64,000 bases of DNA from a virus (taxonomy: Duplodnaviria > Caudoviricetes), in the IMG/VR virus record IMGVR_UViG_3300013999_000001, positions 1 through 64,000 of that record. The stretch is one strand, 5' to 3'. Below are positions 32,416 through 37,220 of this stretch, one piece after another. A model generated the notes under the pieces. That model saw only the letters and a list, made by a program, of their open reading frames with translations, searched no databases and was not told where the DNA came from. Positions within the stretch are counted from its first letter, which is position 1, and every line of letters begins with the position of its first letter. The position numbers and the translations under genes were made by a program.

Positions 32416-33720
32416 ATGTTATTTATGAGCGCAATGCCCCAACCAGAGCAAGCCACACCCATCACTGACGAAGTTCTGGAAATGTCGTTCCAGGCCATCT
32501 ACAACCAGCTGAACCTGACACTGCGGCGCATCGGCGGCGACGACCTCGACCGTCGCGCGCTGGAAATGTGTATTGGCACCGTTGAACAGCTGCATATTGA
32601 TTTTGCCACCCGCCTGAACGAAAACGCTGACTCCTATAACGCACTATGCGACACGCTTGAAGAATTCCAGTCCAGGCTTAACGAACTGTCACCGCTACAG
32701 GATGAAATTGCCCGTATCCGCCAGGACGCAGAGGACCGCATTGAAGCTACGCAAAACGCGGTAGCAATGGAACGGCTGGAAATGGAAAATAAGGCTATCA
32801 ATCTCCAGGGCGAAATTGACTCCATGGCCGATCAGATCGTCACGGCTGCACTGGCACATAAAGCCCTGGAGTTGACCCACAAAAATTATGTTCGCGCCAA
32901 CCCGACCAACATGCACGATGAGCGGAAAAAGCTGGAAAAAGACGTGTCTTCCCTACGTGCCGAGCGTAAAGACCTGAATAAGCGCCTCCAGGCACTGCAA
33001 AGCAAGCTCAACGTGGCCGATAAGGAGATCGCTGAGTCTCGCCGGAAGACCGTTCGCGCCCATCAGGAGCGTGATCGTCTTGATGCGCTGTATTCGCACC
33101 TGAAAAAGCGCGTTGATCTCCATGACGGGCGCGAGGACATGCGGCACTACACATTTGTGACCCCGGAAGGACACGAAGTCACCTTTTACATCTACAACTA
33201 CCATTTCGGTCTGATGACCGCACGTAAGGTGTTTGGCGATCAGGTTATCGAACTGGCTGACTTCCATTACCAGATCCGTACTGCTGCCATGTACGCCGTG
33301 GACGTGGTGCCGAGCGTCTGGGGGCGTCCGGTTTATCATGCAAATGACATGATCGAGCTGGCGCGCAACAGCGAACTGGACGAAGAGCTGAGCCGTCGCA
33401 TTCAGGCTCGCATGCTGCTGGATTTCCCGAAGATCCACCAGCGCATTCAGGATGCGAACAATGTTCCAATTGACGAGTTGCAGCTGACGGCCAAGACCCT
33501 GAGCGTACTGAAAAAGGCGGGCTGCGAGTCGGTGCTGGACATAGCCGCCGTGCTGCCTAAAGACCGCTTGAACATTACTGGCGTGGGCGAAAAGATGGCG
33601 GCAGAAATTGAGCCTGCAATCAAAAGTTGGTGTATCCGCTGGTCGAAGGAACACGGTGACGTTGAGCCCCACCTGAGCAACGTCCTGGCGTCATCAAAAT
33701 CACGAAAAGCGCACTGGTAA
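32416..33720 (+). CDS. pmgS: PmgS-like coiled-coil protein with C-terminal RNA polymerase alpha-CTD-like (HhH) domain
   Basis: 434 aa; LRRIGGDDLDRR resembles P1 PmgS N-terminus; VPIDELQLTAKTLSVLKKAG...ITGVGEK resembles alphaCTD. Confidence 0.75.
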   Translation: MLFMSAMPQPEQATPITDEVLEMSFQAIYNQLNLTLRRIGGDDLDRRALEMCIGTVEQLHIDFATRLNENADSYNALCDTLEEFQSRLNELSPLQDEIARIRQDAEDRIEATQNAVAMERLEMENKAINLQGEIDSMADQIVTAALAHKALELTHKNYVRANPTNMHDERKKLEKDVSSLRAERKDLNKRLQALQSKLNVADKEIAESRRKTVRAHQERDRLDALYSHLKKRVDLHDGREDMRHYTFVTPEGHEVTFYIYNYHFGLMTARKVFGDQVIELADFHYQIRTAAMYAVDVVPSVWGRPVYHANDMIELARNSELDEELSRRIQARMLLDFPKIHQRIQDANNVPIDELQLTAKTLSVLKKAGCESVLDIAAVLPKDRLNITGVGEKMAAEIEPAIKSWCIRWSKEHGDVEPHLSNVLASSKSRKAHW

Positions 33721-33737
33721 ACAATAAAATAAAAATT

Positions 33738-33778
33738 CCTTAGAATTTATTGCATATGATGGCGCAGTTAGGTACATT
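33738..33778 (+). promoter_or_regulatory. Candidate C1 operator abutting a sigma70 promoter at the head of the ncRNA island
   Basis: CCTTAGAATTT (33738-48) then TTGCAT-17 nt-TACATT (33750-78). Confidence 0.6.
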
Positions 33779-33819
33779 TTCTGACGCCAAGCAACAAATT
33801 CCTTAATTGCTGTGTAGTC

Positions 33820-33849
33820 CGGGTTAGCGCTTTGTTAACCCGTTTTTTT
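33820..33849 (+). terminator. Terminator/attenuator hairpin about 35-65 nt after the promoter
   Basis: CGGGTTAGC-GCTTT-GTTAACCCG plus T7. Confidence 0.65.
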
Positions 33850-35400
33850 CCGGCTTTCGCTGGTCGTATTGCCAAACTTATTCCCGCTTGTGTTTATTTT
33901 TCGCGGTAGTACGACCAGCAAAAACCGGATGTAAGTATGACCCTCTGCGGGCGGTAAGTTATGGAAACGAAAGTTCTATCAGCGTTAAATCAGCACCGGG
34001 GCCAGCGTCCATAACTGCTAAGTGGTCCCACCGGGAGGCACCCGGCTTATATCCGGTTTTTGATTGTTTTGTTGGGGCGAGGCCTGCGCATCATGAGGCT
34101 TACCCACGTTTGTAGCAGGCGTACATTTAGCGATGATCCTACGCCGCCCGGGTTCCTTTCTCGGGTTTGCACAAACGAGTATGGGAAATGATGAAGTCGC
34201 CCGGGAGGGTATTGTTCAGCTAACCACTGTGGCGAAACGGTTTGGAAGTCCGGGAGAGACGGACGTGTTATGCCGCTGTCACTGGCATAACGCTAAAGAC
34301 ATGGATCAGGATATGTTGCCAGCACCTGAGTTGCACCCGCTACCGGCAAGGTTGTTAGGCCGGGGAGCCGTCGTAACGGGCCACGCGGCGCAAGGTTGTC
34401 AAGCCGTGTCTTTTGCGTTGTGAAGTGCCGATGTAAGGCAACATAGATTCGATGCACCCGATTCTTTAACCTCTAAAGGAGACGAGGATAATGTTCTGGT
34501 TGGGTGCATCGTCTTAGTTCGTAACGGGTCGCTCTCTGTCAGCATGAAGAGTGTGTTATGGAGAAGGTGAACGACAAGTAGCCCTCCCTGTCACGGCAGT
34601 GAACGCGGTTGACGACGTAATCCCGCGCATAGAACGCCCCGTGAGGCTTAAACCCCGTCCGCCTCGCCCTCGTAAGGGGCCAGAATTCGAGACGGTAATT
34701 GTGTGTTCGTTATGCGCTCCTTCCACCTCTTCTGGAATCGCTCTGCGCTTAGCGACCACACAATTCCGGTTTCACCGGTTAGTGCTTCGAACACACTAAC
34801 TTAACCCATTCGATCTTACAGCTATCAGTCGGCTGGTGGGCCGGAATACCAACATCTAAAGGCGTTGCTATGGGCATAAATACACTTCCAGCGCCTTTAA
34901 ATGTTGTGGCTAATGCAGCTATGCGCATGCGGGTAAGTGGTTAGGTAGTAGCGTAGGTAAGAAAGTCATTAGGCCGAGCTTTGTGAAATGTTCCCGTTCA
35001 GGGTGGATAACCAGCCAAAGAACACCGGGAGGCACCCGGGGCCACAACAGAAACCGATGGAGCAACCAATAAACGGTAATCCGTAATGGATAAAAATCCG
35101 TTGAGGAAGGAGCCAGGCCGGAATCGTCACCGGCACCACAATCAAAGAGCGCGGGCGTGAAAAACTGTAACCTGCGACCAGCACATAACACCGAACCCCA
35201 ATCGGGCTGGGCAAAACATGGTGTAGGTGGATCGCTCTTTTTGATTGTGGTGACTAAAGCCCGGTGATTCTGTTTTCAGAGTTCAGGATCATGCAGGGGA
35301 AACCGTCAGAATGGGGACGGGAGGGAAACGCCATTACAGCCACCTGAAAGGGGGGCCACCACAAACCTCACCCGCGCGATCGCGCAACCATGCAGGACTT
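33849..35400 (+). ncRNA. Island of multiple structured RNA-like domains (unclassified)
   Basis: No convincing ORF; about nine long-range helices found by eye, e.g. 33919-35/34046-62, 34107-13/34171-77, 34312-20/34437-45, 34450-59/34502-11, 34697-705/34757-65, 34851-67/34889-905, 34902-10/35041-49, 35134-51/35233-52. Confidence 0.6.
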
Positions 35401-35404
35401 ACCC

Positions 35405-35524
35405 ATGACGATATTTGAATTTATGGATAGAAATCCATGGTGGACGCTGATTTACCTTCTGTTGATCAGTGAGGGCTTGGTGGCAACCGTCAAGCAGCTG
35501 CGAAAACCGAAAAAGGAACGATAG
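35405..35524 (+). CDS. 39-aa small membrane protein (not in ORF track)
   Basis: MTIFEFMDRNPWWTLIYLLLISEGLVATVKQLRKPKKER; AGGA RBS; TM segment followed by basic tail. Confidence 0.55.
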   Translation: MTIFEFMDRNPWWTLIYLLLISEGLVATVKQLRKPKKER

Positions 35525-35531
35525 CGTTTAA

Positions 35532-35616
35532 GCATGGGTGGCGGAGAAGGCCGAACGCAGTTAGTTAACTCCTGTTCAGTCAGGTCATCGCAGGTTCGAA
35601 TCCTGCCCCATGCATC
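35532..35616 (+). pseudogene. tRNA-like RNA with aberrant anticodon arm
   Basis: GCATGG(G)/(C)CCATGC acceptor, D-arm GCG/CGC, perfect T-arm GCAGG-TTCGAAT-CCTGC; no canonical 7-nt anticodon loop; ends A-TCA. Confidence 0.6.
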
Positions 35617-35620
35617 AGTT

Positions 35621-35697
35621 AGGCCCCTTAACTCAGCGGAGAGAGTAAGCCCCTCATAAGGGCGGAGTCGCCGGTTCGAATCCGGCAGGGGCCACCA
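35621..35697 (+). tRNA. trnI: tRNA with CAT anticodon, Ile2 (lysidine) type, like P1 trnI
   Basis: GGCCCCT acceptor, GCCC-CTCATAA-GGGC anticodon arm, GCCGG-TTCGAAT-CCGGC T-arm, encoded CCA; acceptor stem matches E. coli ileX. Confidence 0.9.
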
Positions 35698-35747
35698 TAG
35701 CTTTTACAGTCACACAAAGATGTGGCGACCGCGACTCCGTAATGTTC

Positions 35748-35771
35748 GGGCCCATTGTGGCCCCTTTTTTT
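35748..35771 (+). terminator. Rho-independent terminator after tRNA
   Basis: GGGCC-CATTGT-GGCCC plus T-run. Confidence 0.65.
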
Positions 35772-35794
35772 ATGCAAAGGACCCAAAACAGATC

Positions 35795-36271
35795 ATGCAG
35801 CAACAATTCAAAGATATGCCGCTTTATGTCGGCACCCTGTATTCCAACGCCAAACAGATGACGCGCGCAGCTTATAACGAATTCCGTGGATGGAAGTTGC
35901 CCGCGAACGAGCAGGGCGATGATATGGGCTATCTGGTGATTAACCATCAGGGCCAGAACAATACGACGCATTGCACCGGCTATGTCAGCTGGGTGCCGAA
36001 AGATCTCTTCGAAAGTACCCACCTGCTGGTGGGCGACGTGACCGACCTGCCACCATTCCACCAGCGTATTAAAGCTGAACGGACGCAATTAATAGATCGC
36101 ATTCAAAAGCTGGTGGCATTCATCGGTATGGACAGCTTTCTGGACCTCGACGCCTTTGAACAGAGCCGCCTGAATAGCCAGCTGGACTACATGCAGAGCT
36201 ATCGTCGTGAGCTGGACGAGCGCCTGATTGCGCTGTCGGAAGCCGACAAAGAAAAAGCCACGGCGGCATAA
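35795..36271 (+). CDS. Two-domain phage protein: YxGT...GYxSWxPK domain plus crAss001_48-like helical domain
   Basis: 158 aa from ATG 35795; YVGTLYSNAKQMTRAAYNEFRGWKLP...GYVSWVPKDLFE; HQRIKAERTQLIDRIQKLVAFI...QLDYMQSYRRELDERL. Confidence 0.7.
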   Translation: MQQQFKDMPLYVGTLYSNAKQMTRAAYNEFRGWKLPANEQGDDMGYLVINHQGQNNTTHCTGYVSWVPKDLFESTHLLVGDVTDLPPFHQRIKAERTQLIDRIQKLVAFIGMDSFLDLDAFEQSRLNSQLDYMQSYRRELDERLIALSEADKEKATAA

Positions 36272-36279
36272 CGATACAC

Positions 36280-36412
36280 TGAGACGTGCTCAAGCGAGCT
36301 GCACCGCAGGCGGGAGGAAAGACCGGTATACAGTCGGCTGGGCTGCACCTGGGCAGTCAATACCAAAACTGAGCGGACCGGAAATAAGCAGGGGTAGCGC
36401 CCTGGTGTCTCA
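36280..36412 (+). ncRNA. Structured RNA candidate with tRNA-top-half-like architecture
   Basis: TGAGACGT/GTGTCTCA closing stem, GCTC-AAGC-GAGC hairpin, terminal CAGGG-GTAGCG-CCCTG hairpin abutting the closing strand. Confidence 0.5.
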
Positions 36413-36483
36413 CCCATTAACGCAGAATAAAGCCCTGAAAAATGACGATGGCCATGCATGGCGCCAGGGATATTATTTTGCAA

Positions 36484-36656
36484 ATTCCTGGCCTTCGTAG
36501 AGACTTACTCTGATTCGCCCCGTAAAGGGTAGAAGAGTCGCCGCTAGTGGCTAAGGCCTGGCTGAGCGTCGTTAAAAAACAGTACACCGCAGACGAATAC
36601 CGCCGTGGGATTCGTGGCGAATTCCCGCAAAACGTCTAAGGCAAAAGACCAACAAA
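36484..36656 (+). ncRNA. Further structured non-coding segment
   Basis: GGCCT..TAG/CTA.AGGCC enclosing hairpins; AGACG/CGTCT enclosing a GTGGGA/TTCCCGC hairpin; no ORF with an RBS. Confidence 0.35.
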
Positions 36657-36657
36657 G

Positions 36658-36684
36658 AGGCCCGGAGAAATCCAGGCCTTTTTT
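36658..36684 (+). terminator. Rho-independent terminator
   Basis: AGGCC-CGGA-GAAA-TCC-AGGCCT plus T-run. Confidence 0.7.
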
Positions 36685-36783
36685 ATTTGTGCGTCGTGCA
36701 ACGTGTTACGGATCGCATTTACTACACGGCGTTAAGGGTGGTAAAAAAAACATCAACGTAAAAGTGGATCTTAAAAAAGTTTT

Positions 36784-36810
36784 CCTTAGAATTACTATTA
36801 AGTTCTAAGG
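36784..36810. promoter_or_regulatory. Double (inverted) candidate C1 operator upstream of lpa
   Basis: CCTTAGAATTA and, on the minus strand, CCTTAGAACT; second copy overlaps the RBS. Confidence 0.6.
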
Positions 36811-36818
36811 AGGCGGGC

Positions 36819-37220
36819 ATGCATTTAAGGATCACCAGCGTTGAAGTCGCCAATATCATGTTGCGGGAGCGCCGTTACATGACTATTTCCGAGATAATGA
36901 GCGCTCTGGATGAGGCGTATCCGCATATGATCGCTGACCACACTGCCGTAACCAACGTTGTCCGCACCTTCTTTAAATCCCCGTTCGCAGTATGCCTGTC
37001 CATGCCTAACGCCTATCCCCGCCAGTACATGCTAACGTCCGTGAAAGGGTACAAGTTTAAGATCCGTGGTGGTCGGCAGATTTGCTATGACGATTTGCCA
37101 TTTAATGGCGGCACCCGGGAAGAGAAAGAAAAGGAGTTAAAAGAAAGCCAGGCACTTTCGCGCATGGCTTTTGAGCTTATGAATGATTTAGTCCGTCGCA
37201 GGGCGCTACTTTTTCCGTAA
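36819..37220 (+). CDS. lpa: Probable late promoter activator Lpa
   Basis: 133 aa; winged-helix-like N-terminus; upstream of pacA as in P1 and preceded by operator motif. Confidence 0.6.
   Translation: MHLRITSVEVANIMLRERRYMTISEIMSALDEAYPHMIADHTAVTNVVRTFFKSPFAVCLSMPNAYPRQYMLTSVKGYKFKIRGGRQICYDDLPFNGGTREEKEKELKESQALSRMAFELMNDLVRRRALLFP

Follow-up and report, generated by a model that had tools for sequence, protein, structure and literature searches.

A 1.9-kb island with few open reading frames (ORFs), at about 33,750-35,700 of a 64,000-nt window (the whole stretch of DNA analysed) from an 85.8-kb IMG/VR virus record, is very probably an array of real RNA genes, not debris or a set of missed protein genes. 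It comprises at least a dozen stem-closed RNAs, one short RNA ending in a terminator, two tRNAs and one gene for a peptide of 39 amino acids (aa) (Table 1). The domains exist and are non-coding, and in several the pairing is preserved by compensatory and wobble changes compatible with the + strand only; comparison with homologues showed that unrelated phages swap the domains one unit at a time. At least three of them, M6, M12 and M13, represent, as judged from their alignments, covarying families missing from Rfam 15. With less assurance, we consider it likely that the + strand array is co-transcribed and excised at its closing stems to give stable RNAs, with the tRNAs matured by RNase P. New here are the M6 family and its pseudoknot, the covariation of M12 and M13, the co-occurrence of modules in early-left and late leaders of unrelated phages, and an RprA-like partner.

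Structured RNA modules of the island

The initial annotation proposed eight closing helices, and all eight were recovered by inverted-repeat search (repeats I1, I3, I4, I6 and I22) and in RNAfold structures. On the + strand, seven of the eight domains it delimited folded with z-scores of -1.9 to -6.2, mostly better than on the - strand; the eighth (34312-34445) reached only -0.25, whereas a helix overlapping it (34286-34422) gave -2.85. Because these boundaries had been picked on helices, which biases the per-domain scores, we also folded unbiased 150-nt windows. Island windows averaged z = -1.39 and the 109 windows from the flanks -0.50 (Mann-Whitney p = 0.003 for the + strand and 0.04 for the - strand), a real but modest support. 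Long-range pairs in a whole-island RNAalifold structure were distrusted, and local helices alone were used.

ORFs of 75-96 aa occur on both strands of the island. In three close relatives (Leclercia pE1_003, Leclercia pZ96-1_2 and the E. coli ET210 plasmid), however, those of 75, 96, 82, 90 and 81 aa carry in-frame stops or frameshifts, in agreement with the earlier view that nearly 2 kb holds no credible ORF save that of the 39-aa peptide. We set the start of this small gene at the ATG at 35405, as two relatives have no upstream ATG. Its product had no match in Pfam or PHROG, in a protein-family scan that covered this one among the island ORFs. Between the 39-aa ORF and the tRNAs, close relatives encode an additional 126-aa hypothetical protein (L001 5771-6148; L006 3877-4254) whose gene is missing from the window.

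Several modules recur singly in otherwise different genomes. The first kilobase of the island is common to the three close relatives only; Enterobacter and Pantoea plasmids contain 34551-34680, P1 has 34993-35048 at another location, and 35290-35365 is shared with Erwinia phage Pavtok and with a Pseudomonas phage. A megablast search against isolated phages found no match for the whole island, and a more distant search returned short modules alone. Compensatory pairs were found in M2, M5, M6, M12 and M13, in line with the proposal of separate structured domains arrayed on the + strand and ending in tRNAs.

Among the modules of the close relatives, M5 has three compensatory pairs and one C-G to U-G change, and M7 keeps its pairing through U-G/C-G and U-G/U-A changes. 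The closing helix of M1, aligned by eye (alignment A1), has two compensatory and two broken pairs; its 5' arm (33914-33929) overlaps the preceding long hairpin, such that the two are alternative folds. For M2, a pattern search of IMG/VR gave no other match, and a 14-base pattern from M4 gave single chance matches only. No counterpart of a tmRNA (transfer-messenger RNA)-like module was detectable in the window by blastn; P1 has weak tmRNA matches of 24.1 and 13.1 bits.

M12 and M13 could be followed further afield. Ten M12 sequences share 31 pairs, 6 of them compensatory, and one fixed G-U pair, and six M13 sequences share 32 pairs, 5 of them compensatory, with a U-A to U-G change in the closing helix. 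The two modules share the strand 35243-35252, and their closing helices are thus alternatives. The G-U pairs of M6, M12 and M13 would be A-C mismatches on the opposite strand. In Pavtok, M13 is followed by its own terminator. We considered whether this match, which lies beside an integrase gene, was an attP copy of a host gene, and rejected that idea: it is a stem-closed RNA with a terminator of its own, located after the lysis genes.

The 23-nt core of M6 has matches in 43 contigs of IMG/VR and in 6 genome contigs (Pantoea, Enterobacter, Citrobacter and Pectobacterium), hence in at least 49 phage or prophage contigs, which include phage-plasmids of ~90 kb and prophages of ~41-48 kb; none of 50,697 isolated phage records matched. 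In an alignment of 8 sequences, 98.8% of cells were paired and 5 pairs had changed on both sides, compared with 0-1 in slid controls, and across 35 distinct sequences the four core helices were 98.1% paired. Compensatory pairs fell in three of the seven helices, with strong covariation in the 5' hairpin, the outer helix and the 3' hairpin, and fixed G-U pairs put the RNA on the + strand. Two of the hairpin loops also pair with each other: the pairing shifts in step between sequence classes (for example, GCTC/GAGC, GCCC/GGGC and GCAC/GTGC), and one position shows three different Watson-Crick pairs. This class-wise pairing is good comparative evidence for a pseudoknot. A generic loop-complementarity score did not exceed swapped controls, as A/T-rich loop ends pair by chance, and the class-by-class table carries the evidence. 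A covariance model built for M6 (R1) scored 109.6 bits in the window and found one copy per phage, together with a divergent copy in contig L184.

The domains had been described as belonging to no recognised Rfam family. This largely stood, as cmscan placed nothing but the tRNAs above the gathering threshold in the island; it did not hold for M10, which is a sub-threshold relative of STnc100. M10 aligns over 34905-35046 to positions 31-147 of the 206 in the STnc100 model, a partial match that nevertheless takes in the closing helix, the hairpin at model positions 108-119 and an identical hairpin at 125-140. A stretch of M1 (34030-34045) matches the latter positions locally at 15.7 bits; neither module reaches the gathering score of 47 bits. 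The P1 stretch just before tciA, which is 86% identical to the 3' half of M10, scores 33.4 bits. Other weak matches at E up to 10 (miRNA precursors, Plastid-ycf2 antisense to the tRNAs, and CPEB3) were dismissed as noise.

Table 1 Features of the island, in order of position
Feature	Position (strand)	Description and support
CCTTAGAAYT motif	33738..33747 (+)	Recurring 10-nt motif beside the proposed -35; candidate operator or part of a -10 element
Promoter of the initial annotation	33750..33778 (+)	Weak consensus match; conserved in relatives
M0	33783..33850 (+)	Candidate small RNA of ~65 nt; ends in an intrinsic terminator (stem 33820-33842 and T run)
Long hairpin	33849..33929 (+)	25-nt arms; I2; z = -5.7 (+), -7.0 (-)
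M1	33914..34067 (+)	Stem-closed; I3, D7; z = -3.6; 17-nt hairpin as in STnc100
M2	34075..34202 (+)	Stem-closed; z = -2.1; clade-only; three compensatory pairs among 4 relatives
M4	34286..34445 (+)	Two hairpins with the same 10-nt loop motif; I5, D9; 100% identical in 4 relatives
M5	34450..34511 (+)	62-nt hairpin; I22; z = -4.4
M6	34516..34684 (+)	Multi-helix RNA of ~170 nt with loop-loop pseudoknot; alignments A5, A6, A7
M7	34689..34773 (+)	Long hairpin, 29-nt arms; I1; z = -6.2 for core 34697-34765
M9	34850..34906 (+)	Hairpin, 18-nt arms; I6; z = -4.2
M10	34902..35049 (+)	STnc100-like stem-closed domain; Rfam RF02076, 22.4 bits (gathering 47), E = 0.004, local
M11	35043..35141 (+)	Common to P1, P7, D6 and Citrobacter phage phiNP; 82-86% identity over 91-99 nt
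M12	35134..35252 (+)	Invariant 20-bp closing helix, covarying interior; alignment A8
M13	35243..35366 (+)	Also in Erwinia phage Pavtok and 3 viral contigs; alignment A9
39-aa peptide gene	35405..35524 (+)	Hydrophobic, basic-tailed membrane peptide; intact in 3 relatives, 81-86% identity, conservative changes
tRNA-like gene	35532..35614 (+)	Odd, 83 nt; uncertain anticodon arm; ARAGORN, Rfam tRNA 39.8 bits
tRNA with anticodon CAT	35622..35697 (+)	Met or Ile2; ARAGORN and Rfam
Terminator-like hairpin and T run	35737..35770 (+)	Hairpin 35748-35770; terminator scan

Genomic settings and boundaries

Gene order gives the modules a common theme: they sit just behind a main regulated promoter, where a major regulated phage operon has its untranslated leader. 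In lambdoid prophages, a cI-like repressor gene is followed by a pL-like promoter and, after ~100 nt, by M6, with M12 directly behind it in those that carry M12. An RprA-like 3' half with a terminator, small ORFs and the genes for a RecE-like exonuclease and Gam come next, and no N-like ORF was found in these leaders. In contig L184, M13 and the M6-like copy share a 1.86-kb ORF-poor stretch between a holin gene and the gene of a transcriptional regulator that may, from its position in the lambda Q slot, be of Q type; this is the slot in which Stx phages carry tRNAs, stx and STnc100. M6 begins right after the CCA end of a tRNA in Pantoea plasmids, and M6, M12 and M13 also occur in phages with no tRNA nearby.

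Two further elements of the lambdoid leaders stood out. A near copy of the 3' seed half of the host small RNA (sRNA) RprA, with a terminator, directly follows M6 or M12 (L024 1125-1225; also L021, L037, L062 and others). It scores 48.3 bits with Rfam RF00034, below the gathering score of 70, and may represent a phage-encoded mimic of RprA. The same 16-nt seed lies inside the island of a D6-like Enterobacter plasmid (L008 3955-3970). Separately, the N-less leader of L024 has three hairpins (829-843, 1320-1335 and 1369-1384) with the same 6-nt purine-rich loop, reminiscent of the N-binding boxB; a related motif occurs at the ribosome-binding sites of small early ORFs.

The genes flanking the island in the window mark a P1/D6-like phage-plasmid. 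Upstream lies the gene of a 434-aa protein with an RNA polymerase alpha C-terminal domain (alpha-CTD; 32416-33720), relatives of which hold the same place in D6-like plasmids, and D6 annotates a PmgS-like gene there. Downstream, a gene with a crAss001_48-type domain adjoins the island (35795-36271), followed by that of an Lpa-like late activator (36819-37220). Relatives of the window carry olxA, VRR-NUC, ParM and pacase genes. At the counterpart locus, P1 has the C1-controlled promoter Pban, a "dicF-like region", trnA, trnT, ~730 bp annotated solely with two antisense ORFs (plp and upl), tciABC, trnI and ban, and in D6 and other D6-like plasmids the pmgS-like gene is followed by 1.2-1.9 kb free of ORFs, with + strand tRNAs. 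By synteny, the island therefore occupies the slot of the leader of the repressor-controlled ban/tci operon in P1 and D6. For D6-like plasmids, the papers we searched mention just a "tRNAs region" (PMC6799933). The D6 tRNAs (L003 2713-3418) are listed on the - strand of the locus; ARAGORN and Rfam put them on the + strand, co-oriented with the island.

The start of the island had been described as a repressor-controlled promoter (TTGCAT-17-TACATT) next to a candidate C1 operator. The promoter is conserved in relatives, but it is a poor sigma-70 match and was missed by a promoter scan that lists just an alternative at 33718-33746. The 17-bp P1 C1 operator consensus had no match in the 64-kb window with up to 3 mismatches; what stood of the repressor claim is the ban-leader slot and a recurring motif, CCTTAGAAYT, beside the -35. 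Exact copies occur at 33738, 36784(+)/36801(-), 42806 and 44197, and the inverted pair (36784-36810) immediately precedes the lpa-like gene. Allowing one mismatch gave 12 matches compared with 4.3 expected, and none of 100 shuffles reached 12. The motif contains a -10-like hexamer. In P1, Lpa is C1-controlled, which makes the motif a reasonable operator candidate, and we regard its sites as a candidate operator set of this phage's repressor, distinct from the P1 C1 operator.

Because a terminator-like hairpin directly follows the promoter, the main product of the nearest promoter may be a ~65-nt RNA (33783-33850; M0). The stem of its terminator is invariant and the loop variable in 4 relatives. 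M0 has a weak similarity to the RprA-like 3' halves of the other phage leaders, consisting of an 8-nt core and a seed-then-terminator layout; the RprA model (RF00034) found no match in 33600-35850 at E up to 10. In the window, and not in its relatives, M0 has 15 of 17 positions in common with the RprA-like seeds, with a 2-nt gap.

At the other end, ARAGORN and Rfam found two tRNAs, followed by the terminator-like hairpin, as had been predicted, with an anticodon (CAT) in the second that fits Met or Ile2. That tRNA scores 59.3 bits (35622-35694) and is 76% identical to P1 trnI, annotated as tRNA-Ile2; its RefSeq homologue is called tRNA-Ile. The first has good acceptor and T arms and an aberrant middle. 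ARAGORN calls it Val(aac) with the anticodon at the odd position 36, and its RefSeq homologue is a tRNA-Arg. These two are the only island domains that score as tRNA in Rfam (RF00005), both above gathering. Relatives also have odd tRNAs, including an 84-nt tRNA with anticodon tta (L011), a 61-nt Rfam tRNA match (L012) and, in L009, a Phe tRNA whose anticodon sits at position 28.

Beyond the island, a second ORF-poor stretch (36272-36690) separates the crAss001_48-domain gene from the lpa-like gene. It has no ORF longer than 94 aa, holds several hairpins and ends in a terminator-like hairpin at ~36660-36690; the RNA array may continue into it.

Proposed processing of the array and competing explanations

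If the array works as we propose, its primary product would be a long early RNA that is not translated, started at the ~33750 promoter, made by read-through from the upstream pmgS-like gene, or both; the initial annotation likewise envisaged one lytically induced unit. Each closing stem of 17-29 bp would insulate one module for independent folding, and the stems would be likely cutting sites of RNase III type, as in ribosomal RNA (rRNA) operons. RNase P would release the tRNAs, and the products would be stable small RNAs acting on the host or on the phage's own expression.

Several observations weigh against this scheme. Co-transcription and processing of the array are steps that we infer; the terminator-like hairpin at 33820-33849, ~45 nt after the promoter, would keep much of the RNA started at the nearest promoter from extending further; and the modules have no U-tailed 3' ends, so they are not classical Hfq-dependent sRNAs. 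The island is also dispensable, being missing from a Citrobacter freundii plasmid. In that plasmid (L010) the pmgS-like protein is 50% identical and the next genes follow within 230 bp. As for the folds, M1-M5 and M7-M9 are known from four close relatives only, and M4 is invariant in 4 relatives, so covariation cannot probe it. The M6 core is invariant partly because it served as the search pattern, and the covariation counts rest on few independent lineages.

The strongest competitor, though a doubtful one, holds that M6, perhaps together with M12, is a cis-acting leader element, a processive antitermination or anti-Rho RNA that carries transcription through the hairpin-rich island, past its terminators and on to the genes beyond, with the other domains as passengers. 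It draws on an analogy, as the put RNAs of phage HK022 let polymerase pass terminators. The lambdoid leaders suit it, with M6 close behind the pL-like promoter, RecE-like exonuclease and Gam encoded only beyond M12 and a terminator, and nothing N-like between, as does the M6-like unit of L184 between the gene in the lambda Q slot and the holin gene. In addition, an untranslated enterobacterial RNA of 1.9 kb would be a target of Rho, and the invariant core and covarying pseudoknot appear to fit a protein- or RNA polymerase-binding RNA better than a base-pairing sRNA. HK022, however, has put sites in both early operons, whereas M6 is present once per phage, with no second copy on the pR side in any of 16 prophage loci. 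R1 had no match in P1, in D6 or in the 21-34 kb region of HK022 (the last at E up to 10, in a region where the put sites are unannotated and were not located). Within the window, 800 nt separate M6 from the promoter and the first terminator-like hairpin comes before the module rather than after it, and in the Pantoea plasmids M6 starts right after a tRNA 3' end. We hold it possible, and no more probable than the leader role itself, that M6 is a new class of complex-folded phage RNA with a cis action on the transcription complex or with a catalytic or ligand-binding function. Were this true, M6 would stand in for N-type proteins in one group of lambdoid prophages and would permit the RNA and tRNA islands of P1/D6-like phage-plasmids to be expressed.

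It is improbable that the island is a counter-defence cassette, as the initial annotation suggested, whose RNAs would mimic tRNAs, serve as decoys for anticodon nucleases or RNA-sensing defences, or sponge up proteins. Its linkage to tRNA genes, one of them aberrant, the odd tRNAs of its relatives, the 10-nt motif repeated in two loops of M4 and the neighbouring crAss001_48-type gene speak for such a cassette. None of the modules, however, has a tRNA score, a T-loop or acceptor features, and the two tRNAs are all that Rfam finds; M6, M12 and M13 occur in phages with no tRNA nearby, and no defence gene context was seen.

Less probable still is a non-functional mosaic of decayed tRNAs and palindromes resembling miniature inverted-repeat transposable elements at a recombination hot spot, in which the helices would be DNA inverted repeats. 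Terminal inverted repeats do bound the domains, M12 has invariant ends around a variable interior, modules are shuffled between genomes and one relative has no island at all. Such elements would be dispersed in many copies per host genome; the island is single-copy in the 85.8-kb record, and 538 of 551 matching places in E. coli genomes are on plasmids, with 13 on chromosomes (the one shown is a 47-nt fragment). Plasmid matches fall mainly on non-mobilizable plasmids of ~90-100 kb, P1- and D6-like ones among them. Interior hairpins also covary, wobble pairs are strand-specific, and DNA palindromes do not explain a covarying loop-loop pseudoknot.

That short ORFs on either strand, such as equivalents of P1 plp and upl, are the real products is the least credible explanation and highly improbable: P1 annotates plp and upl opposite the homologous stretch and the 39-aa ORF is truly conserved, but that ORF matches no Pfam or PHROG family, every ORF of 75-96 aa is broken in relatives, and the reading frame of plp is broken by a 1-nt indel between the window and P1. 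In P1 itself (L002 2837-3406), plp and upl are annotated opposite conserved RNA modules of the + strand, and plp has a TTG start and runs into the complement of tRNA-Thr; from this comparison, the two are probably not genes.

Taken as an array of RNA genes, the island implies that the main regulated leaders of temperate enterobacterial phages, P1 included, apparently hold exchangeable sets of genes for structured RNAs, in stretches now annotated as empty or with doubtful antisense ORFs such as plp and upl. Defining the M6, M12 and M13 families would improve the annotation of phages and plasmids, and would yield specific candidates for control by RNA, whether of early phage transcription or of the host.

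Comparison with known systems

Long helices formed by the flanks of an RNA within a polycistronic precursor are known from the processing stems of rRNA operons and the RNase III sites in T7 early RNA. The closing stems of the island resemble these, except that some neighbouring stems share a strand and are mutually exclusive (33914-33929 and 35243-35252). The tRNA cluster of phage T4 encodes two stable RNAs, 'species 1 and 2' (rnaC and rnaD), which are co-transcribed and co-processed with the tRNAs. Structured RNAs beside phage tRNAs are thus common to T4 and the island; T4, however, is lytic and has two such RNAs only. As for HK022 put, the lambdoid M6 has the position of putL, just after pL and before the first terminator with no N-like ORF, but M6 is larger, pseudoknotted, single-copy and, in the window, far from the promoter.

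STnc100, which lambdoid and Stx prophages carry in multiple copies, has been verified as an sRNA by Northern blot (PMC5331693). It is found downstream of stx2 (PMC12370729) and is related to PasD, an sRNA detected by Hfq RIL-seq (bioRxiv 10.64898/2026.05.13.724894). M2, M4-M7, M12 and M13 have no likeness to it, and the ends of its model (1-30 and 148-206) are without counterpart in the island. M10 shares its stem-closed fold of ~120-200 nt, and both M10 and M1 have the identical 17-nt hairpin just before the closing helix, preceded in M10 by a second shared hairpin. STnc100/PasD and the island also have a setting in common, the leader or moron regions of temperate enterobacterial phages near tRNA genes.

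The P1 ban leader and the D6 'tRNA region' differ from the island in that most of the sequence is unrelated, and the island is without tciA/tciB, ban, the dicF-like stretch and the P1 C1 operator; P1, moreover, annotates the shared stretch as antisense ORFs instead of RNA. In all of them, an ORF-poor stretch of 1.2-1.9 kb lies on the same strand between a pmgS-like gene upstream and lpa downstream, carries tRNAs that include one with anticodon CAT, and contains M11 and the 3' half of M10.

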